Origin: a virus
Length of the DNA: 42,365 bases
Direction: 5' to 3' (one strand)
Virus record (IMG/VR): IMGVR_UViG_3300027852_000019
Numbering within the stretch: position 1 is the first letter of the stretch; each line of letters starts with the position of its first letter. Both the position numbers and the translations under genes were made by a program. Below are positions 1 to 42,365 of the stretch, in pieces. The notes under the pieces are model-generated. The model was not told the origin of the DNA, did no database searches, and saw only the letters and a list, made by a program, of their open reading frames with translations.

Positions 1-127
1 AACTCTGTGCGTAGGAATAATCTATCTGGGCGGAGACCATTACCATGAGAGTATTTAGACACTCGCTTCTGGAACTTAGGTTTAGGTATCTCAATTTGCA
101 AGGTATATACAGTCACTGGCTGAATAT
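1..127. repeat. Terminal direct repeat, left copy. Identical to 42239-42365, consistent with a circular-assembly overlap.
   Basis: Read directly: both copies start AACTCTGTGCGTAGGAATAATC and end CAGTCACTGGCTGAATAT, 127 nt each. Confidence 0.95.
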
Positions 128-5007: not shown

Positions 5008-5036
5008 ATTATATCATACGCTATTGCCATTGTCAA
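5008..5036 (-). promoter_or_regulatory. Near-consensus sigma-A/sigma-70 promoter, leftward.
   Basis: The minus strand reads TTGACA (5036..5031), a 17-nt spacer, then TATAAT (5013..5008) preceded by TGA (extended -10). The inverted repeat GCTATTG-N7-CAATAGC (5020-5040) overlaps the -35. Confidence 0.7.
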
Positions 5037-5059: not shown

Positions 5060-5099
5060 CGAACGTATGATCCAAACATCCATTCTGAACGTATGTACC
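5060..5099. promoter_or_regulatory. Two degenerate Cheo/LexA-box-like sites.
   Basis: CGAACGTATGATCC (5060-5073) and TGAACGTATGTACC (5086-5099). Each GAAC-N4-GTTC core has one mismatch. Confidence 0.35.
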
Positions 5100-5183
5100 G
5101 AACATTTGTGCTACTTAACATAACGCTTGGTTCAAGGCTTATACATTTATTACGAAATTTCCTGGTATTATGTAAAGCAACCC

Positions 5184-5215
5184 GTTGACAATCCCTGGTA
5201 TATGTGCTATTATTG
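5184..5215 (+). repeat. Left copy of an imperfect direct repeat flanking the moron-like island.
   Basis: GTTGACAATCCCTGGTATATGTGCTATTATTG compared with 6155-6193 GTTGACATAACAATCCTGGGTACGGCTGCTAGTATTATG. Shared blocks: GTTGACA, ACAATCC, TGG(G)TA, TGCTA, TTAT. Confidence 0.45.
5185..5213 (+). promoter_or_regulatory. Sigma-A promoter, rightward, for ORF 5280..5882.
   Basis: TTGACA (5185-5190), a 17-nt spacer, then TATTAT (5208-5213) preceded by TGC (extended -10). Confidence 0.65.
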
Positions 5216-5279: not shown

Positions 5280-5882
5280 ATGGAAGCAAAAGCACTCGAG
5301 TCTCAAATTGTCGAGGCTCAAAAAGCACTCACCCAAGCTAGAACTGGACTCATGGCTGCATATCAAGCGAATGATACAACTCAAATCACCGAATTCGAGG
5401 GGTTTGTCGAACATGCAAAGAAGCTTGTAGCAATGGCTGAATTGGCAAGGGATAAAGCTATTGAGGAAGGCTTGGCAGGTGAGAGGGAAGCGTTAGGCAT
5501 TGCCATATTCGAGGCTATCAAGGACGTGAGCGTTAATGGCAAAAAGCTAAAGGTACAACTCGAAGCTGTCAAAGCTACAGGGTTCGCTTTCAAGCTTCCC
5601 GATGGCCAAAGCGACACAGCAAGGGTAGCATTGACGGTTCCAGGGATCCCAGGCACACACAAAGCATCAAGCGGCAATGGTGGCAATCGTGGCGAAATGC
5701 AAGCGAAATTCGGCGTAACATTGGATCAAGCGTATAATGCCTTTAAGGAACCAGAGGACGAAGCGTTATTCAATGCAGCCGAATTGCTCGAAACAAAGCC
5801 TCGCAATAGCAAGCAATGGACGATCAAAAATGCTGTAAGGAACCGTGCTATTGCTGATGGGCGATTAAGGCCAACAAGCTGA
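5280..5882 (+). CDS. Hypothetical protein: the cargo of a moron-like cassette on the opposite strand to its neighbours.
   Basis: 200-aa ORF with its own promoter and intrinsic terminator. G+C is higher than the flanks. The SD is weak and atypical (AAAGGACGG). I recognise no family. Confidence 0.8.
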   Translation: MEAKALESQIVEAQKALTQARTGLMAAYQANDTTQITEFEGFVEHAKKLVAMAELARDKAIEEGLAGEREALGIAIFEAIKDVSVNGKKLKVQLEAVKATGFAFKLPDGQSDTARVALTVPGIPGTHKASSGNGGNRGEMQAKFGVTLDQAYNAFKEPEDEALFNAAELLETKPRNSKQWTIKNAVRNRAIADGRLRPTS

Positions 5883-5896
5883 ACAATGTATAAACG

Positions 5897-5927
5897 AGGG
5901 AGCCTAGTTGTCGGGCTCCCTTTTTTA
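5897..5927 (+). terminator. Rho-independent terminator.
   Basis: AGGGAGCC (5897-5904) pairs with GGCTCCCT (5914-5921) across a 9-nt loop and is followed by a T run (5921-5926). It lies 15 nt after the stop of 5280..5882. Confidence 0.8.
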
Positions 5928-5940
5928 TTGCTCATTGAGT

Positions 5941-5954
5941 AGAACATATGTTCG
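5941..5954. promoter_or_regulatory. Near-perfect Gram-positive LexA (Cheo) box.
   Basis: AGAACATATGTTCG contains the perfect 12-bp palindrome GAACATATGTTC (5942-5953). The Cheo consensus is CGAACRNRYGTTYC. The box lies between TTGAGT (5935-5940) and TATATA (5957-5962) on the plus strand, and directly after a minus-strand TATAAT (5960..5955). Confidence 0.6.
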
Positions 5955-6154
5955 ATTATATATGCCGATTGCTGATAATGCCACGAGCTTTGAGCTATGA
6001 TAGCCAATCGTGCCTTGAAATACATTGCTTACATAGCCTTTGAACATTGCCATGTACAATCGCACACATCATTATTTACACACGCTTTAAATTGCCTTAC
6101 AATGCGAGCCGATGTATGAGCGATGTATAGGCATGGAACCAAATACATTGGTTG

Positions 6155-6193
6155 GTTGACATAACAATCCTGGGTACGGCTGCTAGTATTATG
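6155..6193 (+). repeat. Right copy of the imperfect direct repeat flanking the moron-like island.
   Basis: See 5184-5215. Its GTTGACATAAC 11-mer also recurs at 23039-23049. Confidence 0.45.
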
Positions 6194-6250
6194 AGATATA
6201 CGAACGAGTTAATTCCATTCACGCAAATTATTTATATATAAACTACTACC

Positions 6251-6481
6251 TTATACTTCCTCATAGGTTTTCTCAAATATATCTGGTTTGCATAAGTGGA
6301 TTCCTTCTACATCTTTTATAATCCAATCATTATATTTAACAAGGTCTAGCCCTTCTGCTGTAGGTATATATAAGCCTACTTCATCCACGTAATGTTCTCC
6401 CATAAACTTACACACTTCATCCCTATTATCCTGTTTTAACTGCATTGCCTCGATTACCATTGATTTATTCCTGAATTTCAT
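6251..6481 (-). CDS. Hypothetical protein.
   Basis: 76-aa ORF with SD ATGGAGGTAAT before the ATG. Confidence 0.8.
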   Translation of the reverse strand: MKFRNKSMVIEAMQLKQDNRDEVCKFMGEHYVDEVGLYIPTAEGLDLVKYNDWIIKDVEGIHLCKPDIFEKTYEEV

Positions 6482-6543
6482 ATTACCTCCATTATATAAA
6501 TTCTCTCACCGTCGCCGATTTATAGTAAAATACCCTGGCTTCC

Positions 6544-6624
6544 TTACACCATATACACACGAAAGTCATGTGGTTGCTGCAATCCTCCATCCAATGATGG
6601 GCACCACTCGGCGATTTTGGGCAT
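6544..6624 (-). CDS. Possible micro-ORF, 26 aa.
   Basis: My own translation: MPKIAEWCPSLDGGLQQPHDFRVYMV. GGGAG lies 6 nt before the ATG. Support is weak. Confidence 0.25.
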   Translation of the reverse strand: MPKIAEWCPSLDGGLQQPHDFRVYMV

Positions 6625-6649
6625 TTCCAACTCCCAGATTTTTTATAAC

Positions 6650-7066
6650 TTATATATCCTGGACTATCCATTTCTTAGGTACTCCTCCATATCTCCCAAT
6701 GCGTGTGGTTACATCCTCTATCTTGCTATCCAATTTAATAACTGACAGCAGATTGTCTGGAAACTTAGCCTTTAGGCGTTTCTTTTGTTGTACTAGCATG
6801 GCATGTTTGCGTAGCAGTTTCTTTCTTTCCAATGCATCCTTTGGTTCTAGTTTTAATACCTTCCTTCCTCTAGGGCTGGCATGGTATGGGTTTTGCCTCA
6901 ATGCGTCCATGCCATTATCTACCCAGCAGTTTGTATGAAACCTCATCTCATACATCCGCTTATGATGCCAGGTTCTACATACCACACAGGGAGTTGCTAC
7001 TTCTATAAACTGCTTACAATAGCGACAGGTAGATTGTCTTTTACACCAGCTAATCCAGACGTTCAA
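6650..7066 (-). CDS. Cys-rich basic protein, TTG start.
   Basis: 138-aa ORF. N-terminal Cys cluster CKRQSTCRYCKQFIEVATPCVVC and a Lys/Arg-rich C-terminal half. The start lies 6 nt after the upstream stop, suggesting translational coupling. Confidence 0.65.
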   Translation of the reverse strand: MNVWISWCKRQSTCRYCKQFIEVATPCVVCRTWHHKRMYEMRFHTNCWVDNGMDALRQNPYHASPRGRKVLKLEPKDALERKKLLRKHAMLVQQKKRLKAKFPDNLLSVIKLDSKIEDVTTRIGRYGGVPKKWIVQDI

Positions 7067-7072
7067 TGTATT

Positions 7073-7501
7073 TTAACCTGTTACAGTTGGATATATAGTT
7101 GGAGATACTGTTTGGATGTCTTTATCATCCATTTTTACCTTATGGCTTTGTTGCCACTGCTCAGACTCCAATACTGTTAGTTCTGGTATTATACCTTTAC
7201 CATCACATACAAGACAAGTCTGTGATATCTCTGCTGCTGTACCTAGAGATGGACGGATTACACGTCCAGCACCATTACATACTGGACATTTATGCCATAG
7301 TGCTATGCTCCTTGCTCTATCTAACTCATTCATAACTTTATCTAATTCATCTGCAATGAAGTTACATAAATCAAGAATAATCTCAAATGCTCCATCAGGG
7401 TTAAGAGTAACAAGTCCCATTGCTTGATATATCCTATGAGAAATGTGTTCTGGTAACCTCTCGTTTAATATTTTGGGGATAGTTTCTTTATCTTTATCCA
7501 T
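7073..7501 (-). CDS. Protein with a DnaJ-type CxxCxGxG zinc-finger pair. First gene of the leftward arm.
   Basis: 142-aa ORF with SD GTAGGAGGTAAAT before the ATG. Motifs CPVCNGAG and CLVCDGKG are 21 residues apart. Confidence 0.75.
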   Translation of the reverse strand: MDKDKETIPKILNERLPEHISHRIYQAMGLVTLNPDGAFEIILDLCNFIADELDKVMNELDRARSIALWHKCPVCNGAGRVIRPSLGTAAEISQTCLVCDGKGIIPELTVLESEQWQQSHKVKMDDKDIQTVSPTIYPTVTG

Positions 7502-7530
7502 ATTTACCTCCTACATCTTATGCTATATTT

Positions 7531-7559
7531 ATTATATCACGTTTTGCCAGCTTTGTCAA
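7531..7559 (-). promoter_or_regulatory. Consensus sigma-A promoter, leftward early.
   Basis: The minus strand reads TTGACA (7559..7554), 17 nt, then TATAAT (7536..7531) preceded by TGA. Confidence 0.75.
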
Positions 7560-7578
7560 ATTTACATTACATAATGCC

Positions 7579-7607
7579 TTGACAAATGTATAATCACATG
7601 TTATAAT
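7579..7607 (+). promoter_or_regulatory. Consensus sigma-A promoter, rightward. It drives a leaderless ORF.
   Basis: TTGACA (7579-7584), 17 nt, then TATAAT (7602-7607) preceded by TGT. The ATG of 7613..8101 begins 5 nt after the -10. Confidence 0.75.
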
Positions 7608-7612
7608 AGGGG

Positions 7613-8101
7613 ATGTCCGAGGCTGAACAAATAACTGAAGCCATGATACCATACTTCCCCGATGACACTCGGAAGTCAAAGTATCTATCCTATAGAGTTT
7701 CAGGCTTTACAATCCGAGAAGCAATTCACTTAACTGGTATAACTGAAGGTAGTGTACGGCGTTGGAGAAAAGATGATGCTATCTTTGCCGAGATGGATGC
7801 TTCTGGCGTCAGTGAACTAAAGAAGAAGTTTAGTTCAGAATACATTAACCTCCAATACACTCGCAATATGCACCTCGTACTTCAAAAGGATTACAAAGTC
7901 CTAGAGAAAAGCATTGCTGAGCCAGACAACCTTACAACCCAGGAACATCAGTATCTATTAAAGCTACGTACTTTTTACACTCCACAACAGATGGCGCTAA
8001 TCCAGCAAGTCATTAGTGAAACCAATGGAGAGAATTTCACCGATTTAGTTTTTCGTATTAGTCGAGAAAGGGAGGAACTAACTATTGAAAAAAGAGCCTA
8101 G
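7613..8101 (+). CDS. HTH protein: a small-terminase-like protein or a late regulator.
   Basis: 162-aa ORF and the first gene of the rightward arm. HTH-like segment GFTIREAIHLTGITEGSVRRWRKDD. It has no SD, so it appears leaderless. The function is inferred from position and the HTH only. Confidence 0.5.
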   Translation: MSEAEQITEAMIPYFPDDTRKSKYLSYRVSGFTIREAIHLTGITEGSVRRWRKDDAIFAEMDASGVSELKKKFSSEYINLQYTRNMHLVLQKDYKVLEKSIAEPDNLTTQEHQYLLKLRTFYTPQQMALIQQVISETNGENFTDLVFRISREREELTIEKRA

Positions 8102-8264
8102 TGTACTTAACAGCAGAACGCCACAATGGTTTAAGGACTGGCATAGAAGTGAATACTGGCATTTCAAGTATGATGTAACAACTAGGATTGGTAGGGTAGA
8201 AAAATGGATATGGCTTTTAATTGGTATAATGTTGGCAGCAACTGTAGCTGAGAGGTTATTTTGA
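8085..8264 (+). CDS. Small C-terminally membrane-anchored protein, 59 aa, TTG start.
   Basis: My own translation: MKKEPSVLNSRTPQWFKDWHRSEYWHFKYDVTTRIGRVEKWIWLLIGIMLAATVAERLF. GGGAGG lies upstream. The ORF fills the gap between 8101 and 8265. Confidence 0.4.
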   Translation: MKKEPSVLNSRTPQWFKDWHRSEYWHFKYDVTTRIGRVEKWIWLLIGIMLAATVAERLF

Positions 8265-8447
8265 ATGAACTGCCCGAGTTGTCAGGGTCAAATGAGAATA
8301 TCATATTCCAAAGGCTTTACAGCTTTATGGAAATGTCCATTCTGTGGTTATGCAACTCTAGGAGCAAGCATTGAGAAGAACAAGAATAATAACTCTAAAG
8401 CAGAAGATAGCGGGAAGAAAGAACTTGACAAAGGCTCAAGTGTATAG
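8265..8447 (+). CDS. Small zinc-ribbon protein.
   Basis: 60-aa ORF with Cys pairs CPSCQG...CPFCG. Confidence 0.6.
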   Translation: MNCPSCQGQMRISYSKGFTALWKCPFCGYATLGASIEKNKNNNSKAEDSGKKELDKGSSV

Positions 8448-8486
8448 GATAGGCAAAAGAGGACTGAGGTATAGGAGGAAATTACA

Positions 8487-8582
8487 ATGAAAAAGTGTCC
8501 TGGTGGGAAAATAAGAAGTAAAGGAAAAGGAAGAGGTTTAGGCATTGGAAAGGGTAAAGGTCCTATTGGCAGGAAAGCATGA
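8487..8582 (+). CDS. Gly/Lys/Arg-rich 31-aa peptide.
   Basis: My own translation: MKKCPGGKIRSKGKGRGLGIGKGKGPIGRKA. SD ATAGGAGGAAATTACA before the ATG. Confidence 0.5.
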   Translation: MKKCPGGKIRSKGKGRGLGIGKGKGPIGRKA

Positions 8583-8755
8583 GGTCAGTATTTAGACCTA
8601 TAATAGCGATAGGACTTGGTTATACTCTATGTATCATGGCTATCGTAGAAGCATTTGATTGTGGAGTTGCTCCTCAGTGGTTTCTAGGTCTTTCCATACC
8701 AATCATAGTTGCTCTATTTGGTGAAAGAGCTTATAGGAAAAATAAGGGTGAGTAA
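8579..8755 (+). CDS. Two-TM small membrane protein, 58 aa. Holin-like topology.
   Basis: My own translation: MRSVFRPIIAIGLGYTLCIMAIVEAFDCGVAPQWFLGLSIPIIVALFGERAYRKNKGE. ATGA overlap with the previous ORF. The C-terminus is charged. Confidence 0.5.
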   Translation: MRSVFRPIIAIGLGYTLCIMAIVEAFDCGVAPQWFLGLSIPIIVALFGERAYRKNKGE

Positions 8756-8758
8756 TAC

Positions 8759-9070
8759 ATGGAAGTAAAGCAACTAGCAGATGGTCAACTTGCAGATTCT
8801 ACTGGTGACTTATACACAGCAGTTTCTGCTACCATAATAAGTACCATGACATTTGTTAATACTCATACCTCTGCTATAACTATGAATGTATATATATTAC
8901 CATCTGGGGGCACTGCCAGGAGAATAATACCAAAAGACATGAACCTTGGAATAGGCTACCTAGCAACCCTTGATGAAGAGATAAACCTAGATACTGGGGA
9001 TAAAATCCAAGGTGATGCTAGTGTTGCGGATAAAGTAGATTACACCATCGGAGGCATAGACGGCTTGTGA
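8759..9070 (+). CDS. Hypothetical structural protein.
   Basis: 103-aa ORF, co-oriented and tightly packed. Confidence 0.7.
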   Translation: MEVKQLADGQLADSTGDLYTAVSATIISTMTFVNTHTSAITMNVYILPSGGTARRIIPKDMNLGIGYLATLDEEINLDTGDKIQGDASVADKVDYTIGGIDGL

Positions 9071-9294
9071 GAGTATATAATGCTAGTGGTGTACTTCAGG
9101 TATCTAGTGCTGGAGTTACAGACCATGGAGAGTTAACTGGTCTTAGTGATGATGACCACACCCAATATCTATTAGCTACTGGCACTAGGGCTGCATCAGA
9201 GATTAGATTAACTCCCAAGGCATCATCTAGCGGTCCAGAGGGAACTATGTTTTATGACTCGGACGATGACCATGTATATGTAGGAACAGAATAG
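9067..9294 (+). CDS. Fibre-associated small protein, GTG start.
   Basis: 75-aa ORF. The GELTGLSDDDHTQYLL segment resembles a motif common in phage fibre proteins. GTGA overlap with the upstream gene. Confidence 0.55.
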   Translation: MRVYNASGVLQVSSAGVTDHGELTGLSDDDHTQYLLATGTRAASEIRLTPKASSSGPEGTMFYDSDDDHVYVGTE

Positions 9295-9302
9295 GAGGTT
9301 AT

Positions 9303-9458
9303 ATGCAAATAAATGTATGGTTAAAGGCAAATGCAACACTCTATCTGGGTGGAGATCCTGCTAAAGGTACACAGCCAGCAGTAACAGTAACGCTGACAAA
9401 ACCTCAAGTGCTTGTTGACCCAGAGAAAAATACAATAGTGGTTTTAGAAACCAAATAG
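9303..9458 (+). CDS. Hypothetical protein, 51 aa.
   Basis: My own translation: MQINVWLKANATLYLGGDPAKGTQPAVTVTLTKPQVLVDPEKNTIVVLETK. SD AATAGGAGGTTAT before the ATG. Confidence 0.6.
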   Translation: MQINVWLKANATLYLGGDPAKGTQPAVTVTLTKPQVLVDPEKNTIVVLETK

Positions 9459-9467
9459 GAGGGTAAT

Positions 9468-10118
9468 ATGGCAATAACTTGGAAGAAACTCGCATACGAA
9501 GATGACGTAATAACTAAGGCATTCATGGCTGCTAAGGGAGATCTTATCTCAGCCTCAGCAGATGACACTCCGCTAATCTTAAGTAAAGGAACTGACACCC
9601 ATGTACTGACTGCGGATGCTGCCGAAGCTACAGGTCTTAAGTGGGCTGTTGCTCCTGGTGGTACTCCTGATGCTCACAAGGACAGCCATGACCCCGAAGA
9701 TGGTTCTGACCCACTGGATTGTGGGGCTGCTGGTGAGATAGCTGGTGTAGTTGCTGCTGCTGAAGGTTCGGCTCATTCATTTGCAAGAAGTGACCACACG
9801 CATCAGGTTCAAGAAAGCATGGCTGATAACCACGTCGTTACTATCAATCAGGCTGATGTAGCAGAAAATGATGTAGGTGTTTTTACAGCAACAGGTGGGA
9901 TTGGCGGGCAGACCTATGCTGAACTTGCAGCGAACATGGCGTTAGATGACATCGGTGTTCCTGATGCAGCAGTAGACTTTGACCTTCAAGAAGCTACTGA
10001 CCTTGTAGTTATGACTGTGGCTAATGAAGCTGGGTTGCCTGCTGCTAATGTTGCTGTTGGTCAACTTTGTTGGGCAACTAGTGAGTTAACCCTACACATT
10101 TGTACTGCATCAGTATAA
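9468..10118 (+). CDS. Tail-fibre-like protein with the MAITW N-terminus.
   Basis: 216-aa ORF with SD AGGAGGGTAAT before the ATG. The KGDLISASADDTPLILSKGTDTHVLTADAAEATGLKW segment resembles fibre N-terminal modules, and SDHTHQ is also present. Confidence 0.6.
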   Translation: MAITWKKLAYEDDVITKAFMAAKGDLISASADDTPLILSKGTDTHVLTADAAEATGLKWAVAPGGTPDAHKDSHDPEDGSDPLDCGAAGEIAGVVAAAEGSAHSFARSDHTHQVQESMADNHVVTINQADVAENDVGVFTATGGIGGQTYAELAANMALDDIGVPDAAVDFDLQEATDLVVMTVANEAGLPAANVAVGQLCWATSELTLHICTASV

Positions 10119-10130
10119 GATAGGTTGATA

Positions 10131-10298
10131 ATGAAAGCTGAAGACCTAAAGCGAAAAGATGCTATGGGAAGACTTCATAACAGGTTGACTGTCCTGATAG
10201 ATAAGTCCGAACTAACTACCTCTGAGGTATGTTTAGTACTGGATAATCTTAAGCAGTCTATTGTAAAAGCATTTATGAAGGAGATAGGACAAGACTAA
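10131..10298 (+). CDS. Hypothetical protein, 55 aa.
   Basis: My own translation: MKAEDLKRKDAMGRLHNRLTVLIDKSELTTSEVCLVLDNLKQSIVKAFMKEIGQD. Its TAATG overlaps the next start. Confidence 0.5.
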   Translation: MKAEDLKRKDAMGRLHNRLTVLIDKSELTTSEVCLVLDNLKQSIVKAFMKEIGQD

Positions 10299-10789
10299 TG
10301 GCAATAACGTGGGCAAGGTTATTAAAAGCTACAGATGTAGATGATACTCCAGTTAATGGAGCAACTGCAGACCCTGTATCTAGTAACTGGGCTTTTGACC
10401 ATAAGGCAGATAAGGATGCCCACCATAGTAATATTCTTACACTTACCTTTATTATAGATGGTGGAGGCTCAGCAATAACCACAGGAGAGAAAGGACACTT
10501 GGAGATTCCCTTTGCCTGTACTATTACGCAGGCTACACTACTTGCTGACCAGAGTGGAAGCATAGTCATAGATATTTGGAAAGATACTTATGCTAACTTT
10601 CCTCCTGCCGATGGTGATTCCATTACTGCCTCTGCACCGCCTACCTTATCCTCAGCACAGAAATCTCAAGATTCAACTCTAACAGGATGGACAACAGCCA
10701 TTACTGCTGGGGACATCCTAGCTTTTAATGTAGATAGTATCACAACTTGTGAGAGAGTAACTTTGAGTTTGAAGGTAACAAAGACATGA
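10298..10789 (+). CDS. Second MAITW-N-terminus protein: a fibre or adaptor paralogue.
   Basis: 163-aa ORF. The first five residues, and 14 of the first 15 nt, match 9468..10118. Confidence 0.6.
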   Translation: MAITWARLLKATDVDDTPVNGATADPVSSNWAFDHKADKDAHHSNILTLTFIIDGGGSAITTGEKGHLEIPFACTITQATLLADQSGSIVIDIWKDTYANFPPADGDSITASAPPTLSSAQKSQDSTLTGWTTAITAGDILAFNVDSITTCERVTLSLKVTKT

Positions 10790-12222
10790 ATGAGCTAATT
10801 GAGAAGAGGACTCGTAACAGTAAGACTCATTCCTTGGGTGGTGGGAAGCACTCTTGGGATGGGTCTATCGGTGCTATTCATTATCAAGATAGTGGTTGGC
10901 AAGATATAGATAGCTATTTTGAGACTGCCGTTGCTCCTTGGGATTGGGAAATGCTCAAGGCTGGCTATCATATCAGGGTTAAAGAGGATTTCACTGCTGG
11001 CCAGATTATTGAGTTTGAGAAGCAAGGCGAGACAGTCCAGTTCCAGCCTATGGCATTGGAGTGGACTAACGACCTTGACCAAGTACAACAAGTCTCAATG
11101 CCTCACGAGGTTATCCCTACTATAACTAATCCAGAAGTTGATTTGCTTCCTGCCGTTGGTATGCCTTCTCATCAGGGAACTATCAAGTGGAATAATGCCT
11201 ATGGAACAGGGCTAGATTTTGAATGGAAATGTACTTCAACTAGACTAGTTAAAATCCTAGAGATAGAGAACTTTAACAAGTTGCCTACTCCTGAGCAATA
11301 CATTATTGATGGTGGTAATCCAGTTCTGAGATTGAACCTAATATTTGACCCGTCAAGTGGCTGTGATATTTACATGGATGGGGAGAAGTGGGATAAGAAG
11401 GAAAAGAAGCAAACATTCAAAGCTATTGAGTTCAGGAAAGACGGAGAAGTTCTCTGGGGATTCATGCCACTGAGATATTGGGGAAGTGGTGAGGGTGAGG
11501 ATAATGAGGGACAATCGGTTGCTACTTTAGAGAAGAGAGGCAATAAGCTCTATATCTCAATAAGAGTTCCTTATGATTGGCTGCAAAGTGCTACCTATCC
11601 TGTGTTTATTGATACTGATGTTGATGAGCAGGTGGGAGCAAGTACTGATGATTGCTTGGAAATACTAAGTGATAGTTGGTGGTCTCTGGATGCGAGTGGT
11701 TTAGTAGCAGGCTATTATTCTGATGAATACAAAGAATATGGTGGAGGGATGCGGTTTACTACTATCAATATTGTTCAAGGGGCAACTATTACTACAGCAT
11801 ATCTTACTCTGCAATGTAAAACCTCCTATAGTGCCACATCTGTAAACACAAGAATAAGTGCTGAGGATATAGATGATGCTCCGACCTTTGCCGATGATAT
11901 TGATGCCTTTAATACTCGTTGGGCAAATAGAACAACAGCTAGAGTAGATTGGGATAATATACCCGCTTGGACAGCGGGTTATAATTACAATAGTGCTGAA
12001 ATAAAGACGGTTGTACAGGAAATTGTGAACAGAGGAGGATGGTCAAGTGGGAATGATATTGTCATCTTTTGGGAGGATTTTGAAGATAGAAGCAGCCATA
12101 CAACTAATTGTTTTAGATGGGCGAAGCCTTATGATTACTCAGCAGCCGATGCTCCCAAGCTCCACATTGAGTATTCGGTAGGAGCAGGTTGGAAAGGTTC
12201 AAGGGGATTTATAATAGGATAA
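10786..12222 (+). CDS. Tail or receptor-binding protein with a C-terminal DNRLRE-like beta-sandwich signature.
   Basis: 478-aa ORF. The segment GGMRFTTINIVQGATITTAYLTLQCK resembles the LRFDLS..GA.ItSA.L.LY signature. Confidence 0.5.
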   Translation: MNELIEKRTRNSKTHSLGGGKHSWDGSIGAIHYQDSGWQDIDSYFETAVAPWDWEMLKAGYHIRVKEDFTAGQIIEFEKQGETVQFQPMALEWTNDLDQVQQVSMPHEVIPTITNPEVDLLPAVGMPSHQGTIKWNNAYGTGLDFEWKCTSTRLVKILEIENFNKLPTPEQYIIDGGNPVLRLNLIFDPSSGCDIYMDGEKWDKKEKKQTFKAIEFRKDGEVLWGFMPLRYWGSGEGEDNEGQSVATLEKRGNKLYISIRVPYDWLQSATYPVFIDTDVDEQVGASTDDCLEILSDSWWSLDASGLVAGYYSDEYKEYGGGMRFTTINIVQGATITTAYLTLQCKTSYSATSVNTRISAEDIDDAPTFADDIDAFNTRWANRTTARVDWDNIPAWTAGYNYNSAEIKTVVQEIVNRGGWSSGNDIVIFWEDFEDRSSHTTNCFRWAKPYDYSAADAPKLHIEYSVGAGWKGSRGFIIG

Positions 12223-12253
12223 TAGCGAGATTAGAGCTTGAGACAGGAAATAA

Positions 12254-12982
12254 ATGACACGCTGGCTAGATAACTTAATTAGGTCAATAGGCTGGTTTAA
12301 GGCACATCATGGTAAGATAGTGCTGATAATCCTAGCTATAGTTCTAGCTGCCACAATTTTAATAGTTACACTGTTACTTACTCCAGCCAATGCTAAATCT
12401 CTTCGGAAAGACTTCTATGCTGTTGGGTTGAACTATCAAGTATATGAGAGCCAAATAATCTCAGGTACTCTTACAACAGTAAAAGCAGAGTCATCTCATG
12501 GTAACAGTGGAGGAATTGAGCAAGATGTGGTAGTACAATGCGATGATGACCGTGTGGTAGTTGAGTTCACTAATTGGTTCTATGGTGATACCACGAAAGT
12601 TGGCATTATCATCCAAGACAGTGATAAACAGATATTTGTTTGTAGAGTACTATCAGAGATAGGCAAACCATATCATTACTATGTTCTTACTAGCGGTGAT
12701 GGTATCATTACTGAAGTTTTTGACTCCAATGGGAATTCTCTGATATATAACAAATATCCAAGGCAGGGACATATTGTTGAAACCAATACATACCTAGAAT
12801 ATTGGAGGATAGTAGGACAACCTTGTTTTTATTATGGCTATGCTACTATAAATGAGACTGGTGTTCTACAAGTAAGGAATGACTTTTATAGAGTTTCTAA
12901 TGGATTACCATTTAATATGACTTTTATACACCACAAGTGGGGAACTAAGTATTATGATAAAGGAGAAATAGACGACCGTTAA
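12254..12982 (+). CDS. N-terminally membrane-anchored protein of unknown function.
   Basis: 242-aa ORF with TM segment KIVLIILAIVLAATILIVTLLL. Confidence 0.75.
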   Translation: MTRWLDNLIRSIGWFKAHHGKIVLIILAIVLAATILIVTLLLTPANAKSLRKDFYAVGLNYQVYESQIISGTLTTVKAESSHGNSGGIEQDVVVQCDDDRVVVEFTNWFYGDTTKVGIIIQDSDKQIFVCRVLSEIGKPYHYYVLTSGDGIITEVFDSNGNSLIYNKYPRQGHIVETNTYLEYWRIVGQPCFYYGYATINETGVLQVRNDFYRVSNGLPFNMTFIHHKWGTKYYDKGEIDDR

Positions 12983-12991
12983 GGAGGTATA

Positions 12992-13186
12992 ATGCCAAGC
13001 TACAAGAAAGCTGTGAAAAGTTACCTTAGACGCAAAGTTGCTGGTAAAGGGGTAGCTCTTAAACGCCCAATTAGAACTACCTTCAAAGTCAAGCGATACC
13101 ATGCCAGGTTGAAGAAGTATGGTACTGGCGTCTTGGGTCATAGAGCTAAAGGATACAGCGCATACAGAAAAATAACTGGAAGATAA
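12992..13186 (+). CDS. Very basic 64-aa protein.
   Basis: SD TAAGGAGGTATA before the ATG. Sequence: MPSYKKAVKSYLRRKVAGKGVALKRPIRTTFKVKRYHARLKKYGTGVLGHRAKGYSAYRKITGR. About one third of the residues are K/R and none are acidic. Confidence 0.7.
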   Translation: MPSYKKAVKSYLRRKVAGKGVALKRPIRTTFKVKRYHARLKKYGTGVLGHRAKGYSAYRKITGR

Positions 13187-13201
13187 GTATTAGAGCAAAT
13201 A

Positions 13202-14767
13202 ATGTCAGTATTAGATAGTCTCATCTCAGACCGCAAGAAGTTCATTGAAACCTTACTTGTGATAGAGGACAAGAGTCAGAAACGAGTACCATTTATACTA
13301 AATCCAATACAATGTAATGTGCAGGAAACTCAAACTGGCAGGGATATATATGTGAAACCTGCACAAGTTGGCTTTAGCTCCGAGCGGTTTGCCAATGCTT
13401 ATGTAGCTACTGTTACAACTCCGAGTACTAATACCGTTCTCATAGCTTATGAGGAGTTTATAACCCAGCGTCTATTAGACAAAATGCAATTCTACCACAA
13501 TAGTATGATGGCATTAAACATTCCAGGCTTTCCAAAGATGCACCACAGTTCCAGCTATGAAAAGACTTTCCCATCCATCCATAGTAGTATATACATTAGC
13601 TCTGCCAGGTCTTATGTAGCAGGCCGTGCTGAGACTATCCATCATCTTCTCGCAGATGAGTTTGCCTTCTGGGAGCCTGGTGCAACTGAACGCATATTTG
13701 CACCTGCATTAGATAGAGTTCCACCAACAGGAACAGTAGATATATTCAGCACTCCCAATGGTGAGGACAATGACTTTTGCGATATGTATAGAATAGCAAA
13801 AGCTGGAGAATCTGTCTTTACTGCACACTTCTATCCCTGGTTTGTACATCCAGAATACTCCATGCCACATGACCATCCAATACTAACCAAAGCTCCAAAC
13901 TGGGCTAGGGAGTTAACAATCCCTGAACTTAAACTAGATTCAAATGAGGAAAACCTAGCTACAAATTACAATCTCACCATGGACCAAATCCGCTGGCGTA
14001 GATATAAAATTCGTGAAAAAGAGAGCCTCAGACGCAGCGGGGATATGATTAAACTATTCCAGCAGGAATTTCCAGAAGATGATATATCCTGCTTCTTAGC
14101 TGCTGGAGATATGTACTATGATACGGATATAATGGGTGAACTGACTCGAGATTGCCATACTGCTCCGATGTCTAAGCAAGTACTACACAACTTTGCGGAT
14201 GTATGGTATCCACCAGAAGATAACAGGTGGTATATACTAGCCATAGACCCAGGTCAGGCTAAGATAACCAGAACTGCTATGGTAGTCCTAGCCTTTGATA
14301 AGGATGATAACCCAACCTACTGTGCCAGAGCAGCAGGTCTTTGGGAGCCAGAAACTACTGCACTAATGGCTATGGAACTTGGTAAATACTATAACAGTGC
14401 GGTTATAACCTGGGAAGCTAATTCTCACGGCCTTGCTCTTGCTCCATTACTTAAGAACTATCCAAATCTATACTACCGCCGAGATGTAGTCAGCGGCATT
14501 GAAAGCCATGAGTTAGGTTGGTATACTAGCGGAGGAGCTAGAGGCACTAAGGAATACATGTTAGCCACTATGAGAAGAATGTTACCAAGAATGAGAGTCC
14601 ATGATGTCCAATTTATTAGCGAATGTAGGAACATCCGAACAAATGATGGTAAGACAGTTTCAGTAGGCATGGATGACATACACGATGCGTGCTGTATAGG
14701 ACTAGTATGTAGAGATTCTCGGCCAATATACCGAGGGTTTGTAGGAACTTCTGGCTTTAAATGGTAA
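13202..14767 (+). CDS. terL: Terminase large subunit.
   Basis: 521 aa. KPAQVGFSS (terminase-type Walker A variant), LLADEFAFW (Walker B), STPNG coupling motif, and a C-terminal RNaseH-like nuclease region with ILAIDPG and MDDIHDA. Confidence 0.9.
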   Translation: MSVLDSLISDRKKFIETLLVIEDKSQKRVPFILNPIQCNVQETQTGRDIYVKPAQVGFSSERFANAYVATVTTPSTNTVLIAYEEFITQRLLDKMQFYHNSMMALNIPGFPKMHHSSSYEKTFPSIHSSIYISSARSYVAGRAETIHHLLADEFAFWEPGATERIFAPALDRVPPTGTVDIFSTPNGEDNDFCDMYRIAKAGESVFTAHFYPWFVHPEYSMPHDHPILTKAPNWARELTIPELKLDSNEENLATNYNLTMDQIRWRRYKIREKESLRRSGDMIKLFQQEFPEDDISCFLAAGDMYYDTDIMGELTRDCHTAPMSKQVLHNFADVWYPPEDNRWYILAIDPGQAKITRTAMVVLAFDKDDNPTYCARAAGLWEPETTALMAMELGKYYNSAVITWEANSHGLALAPLLKNYPNLYYRRDVVSGIESHELGWYTSGGARGTKEYMLATMRRMLPRMRVHDVQFISECRNIRTNDGKTVSVGMDDIHDACCIGLVCRDSRPIYRGFVGTSGFKW

Positions 14768-14988: not shown

Positions 14989-16655
14989 AAACCAAGATAC
15001 TAAAAGAATGTATAGACCTAGAAAAATCCTGGTCTGAGAGGAATAAGCAAATCAGGTATTGGTATGATATACTATTACTAACTAACAACCTATACCAAGA
15101 AGGCATGGAGTCAGTTATAGCTAACGACCCAAGAGTTGCTTATAACCTCTCAGTATATCTCATAAAATCCGCCATAATAGCTCACAAAATGCCTACAGAA
15201 GGTCTAGAAATGCAAGAGATAGTAGATACCAGCAGCATCGAGCAATTCTTTGCCAGACAATGGGGAGAATTAGATGAAGGCCAGAGGAGAATAGGCAGGC
15301 AGTCCTGGCTAAGATATCAAACTGCCCTGACTGTAGCTACTGGCTGGTATTCTGTACTAGCTCTAGCTACTCCAGACAAACTAATTGCTGAAACTTGGAA
15401 CCCAATAGAAGTCTTTCCACACTTCTCCAGAGACCCAGAGATTGGTATGGATAAATGCGCCCATATATATTCTCTTACTTCCAGTGAGGCTAACCGCAAA
15501 GCTAAGTTAAATAACTGGGTACTTCCAAGGTCATTTGTTGGTGATGTTAAGGTATATAACTATTACTTCATAGACGAGGATGGTGACCCATCTAATACCG
15601 TACTGATGAATAATGTTATAGTAATCCCTCCATTCAAGCTGAACCCAACTATCCAGGCATCTAATAGACTTCCAATCTTTGTGTCCCCAGTTGGTGGACT
15701 TCCTGACGATGGTGCTATAGTAACCAAACAAACTAGCTGGCAGAAACACTTTGGTGAGAGTATAATAGCCACCGACGCAGAGGAATTCAACAACCAAAAC
15801 AAGATGCTAACCTACGTCCAGCAGACAGTAAGAGACACAGCAACTCCTCGCTGGTTTGAAAGATCCACAGGCGGTAATATATTAACTCCAGAAACATTGT
15901 TTAGGCGTGGAACTATATACCGAGGTGGTCCTAATGATAGTATAGACCCATTGCCAGTTCCTCCAATGCCACTTGAGCTTAGGACTATACTCTTTGACTA
16001 TAGTAATCGTATCCAGCGAGGCTTATTTCCATGGACGTTGTTAGGTAATATCCAAGGCCAGATGTCTGGTTATATGATGAGCCAGGTAGCTTCTTCCTCC
16101 ATGTCTTCTCTAGCTCCCTATGCAGATGGAATTAGAGACCTACTAACCGATATAAACAACTACTGGTTGTATGAGATGAGAGAAAGAAACATCTCCATAC
16201 GAGGATTTACCATACCTAAAGAAACTCCAAAAGATATTAAATTCAAAGTCAGTCTAAACGTCAACATACCAGGCAGTTTAGTCCAGCGAGCTACAATAGC
16301 TAAGATACTCAATCCACAACTGCGATTTGACTTTGCTACCACTTGTGACTTGATGTTCCCAGAGATAAACAATCCTATAGAAATCCAAGCAAGAGTTAAT
16401 AAAGATGAAGCTGTGATGGGTGAAGTAGCTCAAGCAGTTGCCCTAATAGAATCTTACAGAGAAGTAGCTAAAATGTCTAGGGAGTCTGGCGATACTACAA
16501 CCGCTGACCTTTATGAAAAAGCAGCAAACTCACTGGAAGCTCAAATGTCCACTCCACAAGTACCAACTACTGCTCAACCTACACGTCCAAAGGAAATGAG
16601 GTCAGCAATTCCACGGGAAGAAACAATGCCAGAAGAGTTTGAAGGAGGTGTCTAA
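14976..16655 (+). CDS. Portal protein, inferred from position and size.
   Basis: 559-aa ORF following TerL, with SD TGGAGGGATAAA before the ATG. No motif-level proof. Confidence 0.65.
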   Translation: MPDIKTKILKECIDLEKSWSERNKQIRYWYDILLLTNNLYQEGMESVIANDPRVAYNLSVYLIKSAIIAHKMPTEGLEMQEIVDTSSIEQFFARQWGELDEGQRRIGRQSWLRYQTALTVATGWYSVLALATPDKLIAETWNPIEVFPHFSRDPEIGMDKCAHIYSLTSSEANRKAKLNNWVLPRSFVGDVKVYNYYFIDEDGDPSNTVLMNNVIVIPPFKLNPTIQASNRLPIFVSPVGGLPDDGAIVTKQTSWQKHFGESIIATDAEEFNNQNKMLTYVQQTVRDTATPRWFERSTGGNILTPETLFRRGTIYRGGPNDSIDPLPVPPMPLELRTILFDYSNRIQRGLFPWTLLGNIQGQMSGYMMSQVASSSMSSLAPYADGIRDLLTDINNYWLYEMRERNISIRGFTIPKETPKDIKFKVSLNVNIPGSLVQRATIAKILNPQLRFDFATTCDLMFPEINNPIEIQARVNKDEAVMGEVAQAVALIESYREVAKMSRESGDTTTADLYEKAANSLEAQMSTPQVPTTAQPTRPKEMRSAIPREETMPEEFEGGV

Positions 16656-19600
16656 TGCCAGATGGATTTGGAGACCAACTAAAAAAGTGGCAGCAAGAAG
16701 CTGAATCCAGCTTCAGTCAATTACAGGAGATTGAGACTCAAGCTGGTAATCCGCCACCTGAAAAAGATAAGCCTTGGTGGAAAACCATGCTAGGTGGTTT
16801 TGGCCTTGCAATTCCACCACTAGGACTATACCAATATGCAAAGGCAGCTTTCAAACCAAAACCTGGAGCAGAAGTAGCTAAACTAACCAAGCAAAGAGAT
16901 GATGCACTAGCTAACTATTCCACAGCTACCTGGTTTGCGGATGCGTATTCTGCTACTCCAGCAGGATTAAAAGCGGCTGGTATCACCAGCTTCACCGATT
17001 ATATGAAGAAAGACCCACCAGGTCCAACTGTTGCTCCTGCTGAGTTAGCTAAAGCTAAGAAATACATAGACTCAATTCTCCTAGGCACTGAGGAAGAAGC
17101 TATAACCTACCCTAAAGAACTTGCGAAGGATTGGATTACTGAGCCACTAGAAACTAGACCCAAATTCCAAGGCATACATTTAACTACCGTTCAAGAAATG
17201 ATAAAATGGTTAAGTAAACAAGCTCCTCAGCCAATAGTTCCAGAAAACCTAGGCAATGAGGGTCTGATGGAATACCTTAAAGACCAAGGCTGGGATGAAG
17301 AGCAACTGGCAGAAATTGAAGCACAAGTTACAGAAACTTGGGGTTCTATGTTTGATGAACACCGTTCAGAAAGAGAACAAATTAGACGCTACCAAGCTGG
17401 CATAGATACTCCCCAAATGCCAGATGAGACTTGGAAAGAAAAACTAGCCCGTGCTGGTTCTCAACCTGCCCTTGCTGCTTTGGATGCACTTGGCCTTTAC
17501 TGGAAAGCAGTTGAAGAACCAATAGCTGCATTGACAACTTATTCAATAGCTAACCTACCACCAGCACTATTACCAATCAAACATATAGGAACAATATCTG
17601 AAACCCAAGAACTATTGCGTGATGAGTTAAAAACCTTACATAAATATCATATAGATGAAGGTACAAACTGGTGGACTGCATGGGGTAAAGCATGGCATGA
17701 CTTGGAAGCACCAGAGTGGGCTAAGATATCCATGGAAATAGTTGCAGACCCACTCAACCTTATAGGCTTTGGCTGGTTCACAAAACTAGCTCATGCTACT
17801 AAAGCTATTCCAGTAGTAGGTAGATTTACTGGCTTAATGGGAGCAGTAGAACGAGGCTGGATAGCTGCTGCTGAGTATCCACTAATTAAAGCAAGAGCGG
17901 CGTATAGAAGGATACCATTAACCAGAGGCCAGAAAACTGCATTTGCTGAGTTTAATAGCGATAATATTATAACATCTGCAACTGGCCAACATTTCAGTTC
18001 CAAAGGCGGAATGAAACATATTCCGCAAGAAGATTTTACCAAGCATAACCTAAGTGCTATAGATGAAGTCTTAGATAATCCAGAAACTCTAGGCTATACT
18101 GGTGACTTGGGTAGGAACTTCCTTGATAGACCTCCAATGACACAGGATGACTTTACAGACTGGGCTGGAAAACTCAGTTCATCCTTAACTCCAGCTGATA
18201 TTACTCCACAAACCCTCTTTATGTTTGAGGAGTTAATAGAATCAGCAGCAGTTAGAGGTAGTCTGCGACCTGCCAAGAGCCTTGAAAAAACTGCTCAGGA
18301 ACTTCTCAGGCTAGTATTTAATGTAGCAGACTCACCAGAAAATATGAAGATAGCTGAGAACTTAATAGAAGGTATATATACCAGAACCATAAGGATAGCC
18401 AAAGGTATAGCTTCCATGCCAAAAGCGCAATGTCTAAGACAAGCAGCAAAGAAAGCAGGGAAGATAGTCCTAACTACCAGCTACGCAGATGACTTTAACT
18501 TTAAGTTCCATCATGGTGTATGGAGTGGCATCTTGGGTGAATACAGGCGCACTGCCAACATCTGGGCTAATACCATGGATAAACACCTAATAATGCCATT
18601 TGCCAGAGCCTATCTAGTAACTGCCTCCTACATGCCATGGAACTGGGGAGAAGAGGTAATGCGAACCTGGTTCGGTAGAGGTGGACTTATATATGGTAAA
18701 AACGCTCCAGTTAGGCTAGAATACCTATCCACTGGTTTAACACTTGACCGTAAAATATTTCAAGATGGAGTACCACTAGCCAAGGAAAGATATAGGGATA
18801 TGCCAAAGATACTAGCTAAGGAAGGTAAGCCAGGTATCGGCGAGATGTCTGAGGCAGTAGAAAGAGAATATGGTAAAGGTCCACTAGAAAAGCTCTTGTT
18901 ATATGGCTGGCATCCTAAGATGAATAAGTTCCATGAAGCTCTTTACTTTCCAATCAGAGGTTCTCAATGGGCTGGAGGAATAGAACGTTCTGGCTTTACA
19001 ACTTCTCGCTGGCTACAGCACTTAGATGAGATGGCTCCAGATGCTGTGAAAGGAATCAAAGCAGCAGTTGGTACAGTAGATGACATACCACAAGTAATTG
19101 GAACTACAAAATCACTTAGGAATGGTTTCTACAAACAAGTTAATGATGCTGCACATCTTGGTCCAAATGCAGTTAGGAGCATACCAGACAAGTTTACCTT
19201 CAAGGAAATAAGACTAGCTGAGGTTGCAGAAGCTAGAACTAAGTATGCAGATATTGGCACCGCTGGTGACTATATAATGTCCAGGGCTGAGATTGGTGAC
19301 TTGTGGAGTGATATTCCTGGTCATTTTACAAAAGCTAAGGATAAACTAGCTGATAACTTCCTCCATGCGCCAGAAACTAAGATGGCTAACTATAAAACAC
19401 TAATAGATGACTTGTTAGAAAAAGCAGAAGCTACTCCAAACAAAGAGCATCTATTAGCATTAGTACAAACACTCCGAGAACTATCCGATGATGCACCTGA
19501 AACCATCCATGCAGTCTTTATGGCATTTGGTGAAAGGTCAGCTGGTATAACTTCCGAAGCAGGTAGAAACGCACTTTGGAATGATGCTTATCCTAGGATA

Positions 19601-39657: not shown

Positions 39658-39855
39658 TTACCATTCTCTTACTATTGGACTCACTGATTGTATATCTACT
39701 ATTTCTTTCTTAATTGTATCTAATAATGCCTCCTTGACAACCATACTTATTGTCTTACCATGCTGTGCAGCTAGTACATGAACTTGCCTCCTTTCTTCCA
39801 TGGTCATATCTAGTACGACATGCCATTTTGCATTGTTCTCACTATTGGCTATCAT
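39658..39855 (-). CDS. Ribbon-helix-helix (CopG/Arc-like) transcriptional regulator, 65 aa from the promoter-proximal ATG.
   Basis: KWHVVLDMTMEERRQVHVLAAQHGKTISMVVKEALLD fits the strand-helix-helix pattern. The longer track ORF (to 39894) would begin inside the -35 hexamer. Confidence 0.65.
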   Translation of the reverse strand: MIANSENNAKWHVVLDMTMEERRQVHVLAAQHGKTISMVVKEALLDTIKKEIVDIQSVSPIVREW

Positions 39856-39865
39856 CTCAATATAC

Positions 39866-39894
39866 ATTATATCATGCCAGGCCAGGCTTGTCAA
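39866..39894 (-). promoter_or_regulatory. Consensus sigma-A promoter, leftward, for the RHH gene.
   Basis: The minus strand reads TTGACA (39894..39889), 17 nt, then TATAAT (39871..39866) preceded by TGA. The palindrome GCTTGTCAAGC (39886-39896) overlaps the -35. Confidence 0.7.
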
Positions 39895-41808: not shown

Positions 41809-42365
41809 CTATAATAATTTATTAAACTGTAGTGTCTTTCTATCTATTCCTATCTTTATATTTTTCACCTCCTCTTCAGCGTGCCGAGTCTTCTCAAAGG
41901 AGAGTATAACCTCGGCGTCTTTGCTGGTTTTTATTGTCCGAATTTGGGTGTCAAACCAATTTGACCACATACTACTGCCAAACATATCATCCTCGGATGT
42001 GTATGGCTGGCCATCTACTATCTGGGTCTTGCGGTCATGATGTATTAGGATTACAGCTACCTTGTATAGGTCTATTAGTCTATCTATCTCATTCTGGAAT
42101 ATGCGGACACCATCATCCTCGGTTAGCTTGCCTGATACTACCTTATACAATGGGTCTATGATTAGTACTTGAGGCAGGACGGATTGTAATTCTGTTTCCA
42201 TGTCACGGATGTATATGTTCTTGTCTAGTTTCATGTTAAACTCTGTGCGTAGGAATAATCTATCTGGGCGGAGACCATTACCATGAGAGTATTTAGACAC
42301 TCGCTTCTGGAACTTAGGTTTAGGTATCTCAATTTGCAAGGTATATACAGTCACTGGCTGAATAT
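41809..42365 (-). CDS. C-terminal part of the wrap-around RecA/DnaB-C-terminal-like ATPase (see 1..314).
   Basis: Walker B-like VLIIDPLYK, then AVILIHHDRK, which resembles the helicase-family H..K motif. The ORF is open to the right end of the window. Confidence 0.75.
   Translation of the reverse strand, partial: IQPVTVYTLQIEIPKPKFQKRVSKYSHGNGLRPDRLFLRTEFNMKLDKNIYIRDMETELQSVLPQVLIIDPLYKVVSGKLTEDDGVRIFQNEIDRLIDLYKVAVILIHHDRKTQIVDGQPYTSEDDMFGSSMWSNWFDTQIRTIKTSKDAEVILSFEKTRHAEEEVKNIKIGIDRKTLQFNKLL
42239..42365. repeat. Terminal direct repeat, right copy of 1-127.
   Basis: Exact identity to bases 1-127. Confidence 0.95.

Follow-up and report, generated by a model that had tools for sequence, protein, structure and literature searches.

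The viral DNA analysed here, a stretch of 42,365 nucleotides (nt) from IMG/VR (record IMGVR_UViG_3300027852_000019; hereafter the window), carries a 16-bp palindromic element just beyond the end of a lone plus-strand gene. We refer to the element as the A box (TAGAACATATGTTCGA, 5940..5955, no strand assigned) and to the gene, which encodes a protein of 200 amino acids (aa), as the cassette gene (5280..5882). Directly after the stop codon lies a plus-strand intrinsic terminator (5896..5927), in which a GC-rich hairpin (stem 5898-5904 paired with 5914-5920) is followed by a T-run (TTTTTT, 5921-5926), and the 16-mer begins 19 nt past the base of the stem. Terminator and box occupy a gap of 368 nt (5883-6250) between the cassette gene and convergent minus-strand genes that end at 6251. 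Only mechanical open reading frames (ORFs) of at most 46 aa are found in this gap, and no Shine-Dalgarno sequence was seen for the two that were inspected; the initial annotation of this DNA, which had reported no ORF downstream of the box, is thus borne out. Only on the plus strand is the cassette hairpin followed by a T-run, and a terminator scan found no minus-strand terminator between 6250 and the box.

The box can be read as AGAACATATGTTCG at 5941-5954, within which 5942-5953 form a perfect 12-bp palindrome (GAACATATGTTC) that satisfies the inverted repeat GAAC-N4-GTTC. The sequence around it, ...cattgagTAGAACATATGTTCGattatatatgcc..., also contains TTGAGT (5935-5940), TATATA (5957-5962) and, on the minus strand, TATAAT (5960..5955). 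All of these strings are present exactly where the initial annotation had placed them, and its description of the site as a near-perfect Cheo box, the LexA operator of Firmicutes, proved sound. The bare core GAACNNNNGTTC occurs once in the 42,365 bases compared with 0.28 copies expected, and is not significant by itself because at least one copy was present in 25 of 100 shuffled sequences. With at most one mismatch to the 14-mer consensus CGAACATATGTTCG allowed, the box, which has one, is the single site in the window, and none of the 100 shuffles contained any. A genome scan with a position weight matrix (PWM), a check that the annotation had named, ranked 5940-5955 first in the window with 20.6 bits, using a matrix built from relatives' sites only; the 95th percentile of the best scores in shuffles was 16.3. 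Read on the minus strand, the box (CGAACATATGTTCT) is identical to a reported Staphylococcus aureus SOS box (PMC11442139), and boxes of the form aGAAC..GTTCt in SPbeta are bound by Bacillus subtilis LexA with dissociation constants of 3.9-12 nM (PMC8270828). Our literature search found no paper containing the family consensus as an exact 14- to 16-mer. The view that the palindrome is a genuine, selected operator sequence of the LexA (Cheo-like) type is supported, and the observation lies far beyond chance when relatives are taken into account.

Conservation in related phages, whose absence the annotation had named as refuting, was observed at the same place, after the cassette terminator, in nine other lineages (L101, L110, L100, L105, L119, L124, L126, L135 and L140), in which the sequence following the terminator reads TTAGAACATATGT[T/G]CT; the family consensus of the box is TAGAACATATGTTCTA. 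The 16-mer starts 18-20 nt past the hairpin base in these lineages, and in nine the gap counted from the start of the U-tract is likewise 18-20 nt; the bases of the spacer differ between lineages (values of 13 for L110 and 14 for L135 are artefacts of the regular expression, the L110 box lying 18 nt from the stem base when measured by hand). Their cassette proteins share 25-45% identity with that of the window. In box-carrying lineages the downstream ORFs of the mechanical list are mostly on the minus strand. L104, L103 and L108 have a plus-strand promoter downstream and no box at the terminator position, and in L104 and L103 the box is found in front of that next promoter instead. In the L085 and L113 clade, an iteron takes the position equivalent to the box.

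The stems of the terminator covary fully in 20 lineages (the window and L085, L094, L098, L100, L101, L103-L105, L108, L110, L116, L119, L124, L127, L128, L131, L135, L140 and L178), and the observed covariation was reached in none of 500 shuffles. The 9-nt loop, nAGTTGCCa (TAGTTGTCG in the window), is conserved across the 20 lineages. Because the loop sequence is conserved while the stems covary, a second function of the hairpin is suggested, for example contact with a protein or an RNA, or formation of a DNA hairpin.

To place the box within its motif family, we used a motif fixed in advance (GAACN4GTTC with at most one mismatch). The non-coding flanks of the cassette gene in 13 relatives contained 23 boxes compared with 2.8 expected, an enrichment of ~8-fold, and the rest of the same loci had a background box density of 0.22 per kb. 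The symmetrised logo of 27 sites reads nAnTAG[A/c]ACATATGT[T/g]CTAnTn. Among the 54 half-sites, 13 are TAGCAC and 21 TAGAAC, and a GCAC half-site is present in about half of the sites. The outer positions favour TA over CG, and most spacers, like those of known boxes, are rich in A/T (ATAT, AAAT, GTAT). Boxes also occur in tandem, 16 bp apart.

In relatives, most copies are coupled to consensus early promoters. The 16-mer directly abuts the -35 element of a consensus promoter in L100, L101, L110, L105, L113, L104, L103 and others, and likewise in L134, L123, L121 and L133, which are contigs in which no protein similarity to this phage was detectable. Scanning IMG/VR for AGAACNNNTGTTCTATTGACA retrieved 22 contigs, mostly relatives of ~40-42 kb, in which the order is [TTATGTAAAG iteron][box][TTGACA-17-TATAAT]. 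Where a strong promoter has an upstream box, the core ends exactly 2 nt before the -35 element (TTGACA) in 23 of 25 cases, although this placement was itself the search pattern for about half of the loci, eight of the cases coming from loci found independently. Given the 17-nt spacer, an abutting box is centred at about -43.5. Based on these sequence comparisons, the A box is part of a predicted regulatory code common to a clade of uncultivated ~42-kb phages, in which the terminator-proximal copy is a class of putative orphan operator, set apart from the -35-abutting copies and equally conserved.

Two contigs had particularly many copies. The densest array of the motif found is that of L125 (IMGVR_UViG_3300018465_000007, 114-1735), where 1.7 kb of non-coding DNA with 57% GC contains 12 GAAC-N4-GTTC boxes, six of them perfect 16-mers, most reading TTAGAACATATGTTCTAAT; it flanks a minus-strand gene that we took, by eye, to be kinase-like. 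In L132 (IMGVR_UViG_3300015171_000002, 112 kb, 35% GC), the region 6300-14489 has ~15 A boxes, several of them in tandem pairs 16 nt apart, together with nine copies of a second repeat, the B iteron (TTATGT[ACT]AA), and no protein similarity was detected in the captured 14 kb. Another conserved element, TCTAACCAGAyTCTAAC, is located upstream of many -35 hexamers in this contig.

Our preferred reading, to which we assign a probability of roughly 45%, is that the A box is a functional operator for a dimeric protein with GAAC-N4-GTTC specificity, with host LexA as the leading candidate, and that the copy in the window has a role at the terminator. This copy probably serves as a roadblock or as an auxiliary operator. 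A protein bound there would mark the boundary of the two convergent transcription units, stalling rightward RNA polymerase within the cassette terminator's U-tract and so enforcing tight termination. It would also block leftward polymerases arriving from the promoter at 7559 before they entered the cassette gene in antisense; between this promoter and the box, the strand of the leftward operon carries no terminator-like site. DNA-bound repressors such as CodY, CcpA and LacI, sitting downstream of or between transcription units, are known to stop elongating polymerase. The operator edge in the window lies ~13 nt beyond the T-run, close to the distance at which RNA polymerase, judging from its footprint, usually stalls, and this geometry would suit a polymerase halted in the U-tract. 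With LexA as the binder, the barrier would be lifted by DNA damage. Within the same model, the box may alternatively act as an auxiliary or looping operator paired with a second A box at 5098-5113, about 840 bp away.

As regards the protein that binds, phages that differ widely in their proteins, size and GC content carry the motif unaltered, which points to a conserved binder. Host LexA, the SOS repressor, is the predicted one, at odds close to but not above even, and it is favoured by the match to the Gram-positive box, by the constancy of the motif while phage proteins diverged to 25-45% identity and by the copies next to -35 elements in contigs without detectable protein similarity. A number of observations weigh against this assignment or against the reading as a whole. 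The GCAC half-site is absent from the LexA site lists examined, and the Bacillus/Staphylococcus consensus differs from the family both in this respect and in lacking its preference for TA at the outer positions. Dense arrays (for example, the 12 boxes in 1.7 kb of L125), co-occurrence with a second iteron type and the fixed order [B][A][-35] are all more typical of phage- or plasmid-encoded regulators, and the ~15 boxes and second iteron type of the 112-kb L132 count in the same direction. None of the seven strong promoters of the window carries an abutting box, and the perfect 16-mer was found in 113 viral stretches only, about the number given by a rough chance estimate. The gene content looks virulent: a family A DNA polymerase is present, and neither integrase nor partition genes were found. 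No close DNA relative was found among the GenBank phages of INPHARED, and searches of GTDB genomes with the cassette family and a conserved 478-aa protein retrieved nothing or one match of 38% identity, in an Anaerolineae metagenome-assembled genome with 60% GC and no boxes. Finally, we know of no case in which LexA acts as a terminator-proximal roadblock, nor of a roadblock that forms a conserved terminator-plus-operator module.

The strongest competing explanation, which has a substantial minority chance of being correct, is that the same operator is bound by a phage-encoded regulator whose specificity coincides with, or is derived from, that of LexA. Candidates would be a truncated LexA-like winged-helix protein of the type of gp6 in the tectivirus GIL01, a KorB/ParB-like protein or a stoperator-type repressor. 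Such a regulator would control early promoters from -43.5, and the terminator-proximal copy would be an auxiliary or looping operator around the cassette gene. The systematic TA flanks, the recurrent GCAC half-site, the tandem boxes 16 bp apart and the fixed composite [B iteron][A box][TTGACA] would all be accounted for, as would the lack of a general enrichment of the perfect 16-mer in viral contigs and the presence of boxes on both sides of the cassette gene, which resemble the flanking operators of phage repressor genes. Actinobacterial LexA is expected to prefer TCGAAC, while the 57% GC contig piece holds 12 near-identical copies with identical extended flanks (TTTAGAAC..GTTCTAAT). There is also a precedent in GIL01, where gp6 is a phage LexA homologue that binds a palindrome centred at -43.5 (PMC6182141). 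However, the ~60 window ORFs that were scanned include no clear LexA-like, HTH_XRE, ParB or other DNA-binding domain beyond sub-threshold helix-turn-helix (HTH) and ribbon-helix-helix (RHH) matches. The cassette protein has no detectable DNA-binding fold and is also present in lineages without an A box (L085 and L116). Phage repressors tend to change specificity rapidly, yet the box has stayed the same at 25-45% protein identity, and it is improbable a priori that the optimal LexA core, with its ATAT spacer, should have been matched by coincidence.

The initial annotation had instead seen the box as lying inside promoter-like sequence, in classic repressing positions on both strands, and this part of it found no support. 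The plus-strand pair TTGAGT-16-TATATA has a -10 element without the final T (T6) and was not returned by the promoter scan; the minus-strand pair GTGGCA-18-TATAAT matches at 10/12 without a TG extension. Across the scanned region, 13 promoter-like matches were found compared with 9.0 +/- 3.1 in shuffles, which is near expectation. In an alignment of seven lineages, with which additional lineages agree, the box and hairpin are conserved and the flanking hexamers are not, and none of the nine other box-carrying lineages keeps TTGAGT/TATATA or the minus-strand TATAAT. A location of the box within a promoter is not supported; the conserved feature is its spacing from the terminator hairpin upstream. 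The box is tied to the terminator and to ORFs pointing at the cassette, with no conserved promoter.

The corresponding model, in which the box would be the operator of a LexA-repressed promoter driving an unannotated transcript, seems to us very unlikely. Transcription from TTGAGT-16-TATATA would give a non-coding RNA across 5965-6250, and from GTGGCA-18-TATAAT a short RNA or one antisense to the 200-aa gene. The minus strand does have an exact TATAAT directly 5' of the box and, at 18 nt, a 4/6 match to the -35 element, and in type I toxin-antitoxin loci convergent antisense RNAs are known to use a common terminator. Against this, besides the hexamers kept in 0/9 lineages, the incomplete plus-strand -10 element and the near-chance match count, true promoters in this phage match at 11-12/12, and no stable or known RNA was detected downstream. 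Rfam gave no family for the downstream gap at gathering threshold or at E<=1, sub-threshold noise aside, no transfer RNA was found downstream of the box, and z-scores of RNA fold stability there were -0.74 and +0.41. A hidden gene or non-coding RNA downstream was rejected on these results and the short ORFs. The gap also contains CRATGTAT/ATACATTG repeats, in short families of two or three copies that are not seen in relatives.

The A box lies in a non-coding hub that contains further repeated and conserved elements. B iterons flank the cassette gene in nearly all lineages, often directly 5' of an A box, and in relatives they form arrays with a 13-bp period (L085 2778-2825; L083 130-300; L116 5700-5990). 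The window has motif matches at 5115-5123 on the minus strand and at 5168-5176 on the plus strand, the latter just upstream of the -35 element of the cassette promoter. A further minus-strand iteron (6156..6164; TTGACATAA on the plus strand) is inside the ORF-free gap, and another site is at about 7566-7576 (no strand assigned). We take the B iteron to resemble the XerD arm of dif (TTATGTAAACT in B. subtilis).

Adjoining the stop codon of the convergent gene is element 'E' (6171..6240, plus strand; GGTACGGsTG..TTAtGAGATAg..CTCnCGCAAATTAT), aligned in 10 lineages. It comprises ~65 nt of non-coding sequence with the structure GGTACGGGTG-N7-TTAGAGATAG-(AT-rich)-CTCTCAGAAATT, followed in some relatives by AT-rich tandem repeats; copies are found at L100 4787, L096 1129, L099 771, L105 1587, L113 6655 and, on the minus strand, at L108 3377, L097 348, L083 54 and L102 880. 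No complementary blocks between its conserved segments were seen by eye, and the element may be an origin or another DNA-level site. In L097 (254-330), tandem repeats GGAAATTTTAATTTTCT adjoin element E. We presume a resemblance of these repeats to the CodY box AATTTTCWGAAAATT, which may be a coincidence of AT-rich sequence.

The presence of iterons, the conserved 65-nt element and AT-rich repeats in the same gap, and the lack of a promoter link for the site in this phage, would suit a DNA-level function of the box itself, for example as part of a replication origin or as a packaging or recombination site. The A boxes and TTATGTAAA iterons of the hub bear what we take to be a loose resemblance to the two arms of the Firmicute dif site. 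Such a function is nevertheless very improbable on present evidence, as the boxes of relatives are tied to promoters with single-base precision, no full dif-like arrangement is present and no recombinase or initiator gene was identified next to the box. That the palindrome arose by chance and has no function, as the occurrence of bare GAACN4GTTC in 25% of shuffled genomes might allow, is refuted by its retention in nine other lineages, the ~8-fold enrichment in the cassette flanks and a PWM score that exceeds the best shuffle score in 95% of trials.

Upstream of the cassette gene, two promoters diverge. The leftward early promoter (5008..5036, minus strand) is a 12/12 match to TTGACA-17-TATAAT, and the cassette promoter (5185..5213, plus strand; TTGACA-17-TGcTATTAT) is of the sigma-70/sigmaA type and matches at 11/12 with a TG extension. 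Between them lies the second significant A box of the window (CCGAACATTTGTGCTA, 5098..5113, no strand assigned), a GAAC/GTGC variant that ranks second with 16.8 bits (shuffle 95th percentile 16.3), so that the two significant boxes bracket the cassette gene. Two weak A-box-like sites (5060..5099, no strand assigned), CGAACGTATGATCC at 5060-5073 and TGAACGTATGTACC at 5086-5099, have centres 26 and 13 bp from the next site and PWM scores at background. The A-box position next to the leftward -35 element at 5036 is degenerate here and occupied in relatives. We considered GCCAG-N2-CTGGC as a 'switched' operator at this degenerate position and dropped it, as it is not repeated elsewhere in the window.

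The cassette protein belongs to a family without known domains. An exhaustive search gave 167 representatives, all of ~170-210 aa; a profile of the 200-aa protein retrieved ~20 homologues with 25-45% identity, and an identical protein was found only in two assemblies of the same phage. Its AlphaFold2 model (pLDDT, predicted local distance difference test, 85) consists of a long helical hairpin, a beta-hairpin, a Gly-rich linker and a four-helix C-terminal domain. It was considered as a possible DNA binder; Foldseek returned no match at E<=0.001 in the PDB (full-length and C-terminal models) or in BFVD (full-length model only), a profile search against the PDB gave only a weak pilin match that we consider spurious, and domain searches found no family. 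The C-terminal subtype of the protein does not correlate with the presence of the box. A neighbouring 76-aa gene was of no use for synteny, being a promiscuous small phage protein with 591 matches.

At the level of the whole genome, the ends of the window (1-127 and 42239-42365) are identical over 127 nt, which indicates a circular assembly (or a terminally redundant genome) with a true length of 42,238 bp, and an AAA_25 helicase-like gene is split across them. Other genes encode a major head protein, the family A DNA polymerase, a Sak4-like protein, a methyltransferase and a 2,104-aa protein; the ORF of the last (16655-22969) has no Pfam match and is 24-44% identical to its counterparts in relatives. 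Searches of ~60 ORFs against Pfam and 20 against PHROGs found no integrase, CI/Cro-type HTH or LexA-like domain, consistent with the initial remark that the genome shows neither an integrase nor a CI-like repressor, although in so orphan a proteome this is an absence of evidence; the sub-threshold HTH and RHH matches are at 292-738 and 39658-39894, respectively. Seven promoters match TTGACA-17-TATAAT at 11-12/12, four of them seen with a TG extension, and are arranged as three divergent back-to-back pairs and one before the head genes. In addition to the two described above, they are located at 7531-7559 (minus), 7579-7607 (plus), about 23061 (plus), about 39894 (minus) and about 39933 (plus). 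These consensus promoters, together with strong Shine-Dalgarno sequences upstream of cassette genes, hint at a Firmicute-like or similar host.

The closest known parallel to a phage governed by host LexA is GIL01 of Bacillus thuringiensis, in which LexA together with gp7 is the lysogeny repressor and gp6 is a truncated LexA homologue (PMC6182141, PMC4551915). Like the phage studied here, GIL01 has no dedicated CI-type repressor or integrase, and it has GAAC-N4-GTTC-type boxes, often in tandem, at its early and late promoters. The palindrome of gp6, centred at -43.5 (PMC6182141), has the position of the A box at the TTGACA-17-TATAAT promoters of this clade. However, the LexA boxes of GIL01 are within or downstream of the core promoter rather than abutting the -35 element from upstream, and an orphan box next to a terminator is absent from GIL01. 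Searches here detected neither a gp6- nor a gp7-like protein, the latter type having no family model to search by. The genome is that of a tailed ~42-kb phage with its own family A polymerase rather than a 15-kb tectivirus, and its strong promoters lack boxes, although many relatives have them at early promoters.

SPbeta and the LexA regulons of B. subtilis and S. aureus share the sequence class aGAAC-N4-GTTCt, including CGAACATATGTTCT (PMC8270828, PMC11442139; the LexA-regulon sites of Au et al., 2005 are tabulated in PMC8270828). There, too, boxes are found between divergent promoters (yolC/yolD), and some are far from any obvious target. LexA binding was shown in those systems, whereas the boxes described here are known from sequence; moreover, the published lists contain neither the GCAC half-site nor strict TA outer flanks, and no fixed spacing to a terminator.

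Reuse of one palindromic or short site many times is also characteristic of the KorB operators of RK2 and the stoperators of cluster A mycobacteriophages. Some of these copies are directly upstream of -35 elements, while others are distant or between convergent genes, where they act as distal operators or block elongating polymerase. They differ from the A box in sequence and in binding protein, the window has two significant copies only, and its genes include none recognised as ParB/KorB-like or L5 gp71-like.

LexA boxes in phages are already known, almost always as promoter operators of temperate phages. In the present case, phages in which no lysogeny genes are seen keep a LexA-type operator at a conserved distance from a terminator, where two convergent units meet. 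It opens onto a compact regulatory hub made up of A boxes, the 13-bp-period iterons, the terminator with its conserved loop, and a protein family of 167 representatives. In its most far-reaching form, which we regard as unlikely though worth stating, host LexA would be wired into early transcription in two ways, through the -43.5 operator and through a terminator-coupled roadblock that insulates a convergent regulatory cassette. If so, DNA damage would both fire the early promoters and dissolve the boundary between the convergent units, a LexA-dependent terminator/roadblock module would represent a new mode of SOS control, and the use of host LexA as a phage's only repressor, in the style of GIL01, would extend from tectiviruses to tailed phages. 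Should a phage protein bind the site, it would be an undescribed regulator that shares the specificity of LexA and could compete with it; should LexA bind it, these environmental phages would sense the DNA-damage state of their hosts without a repressor of their own.

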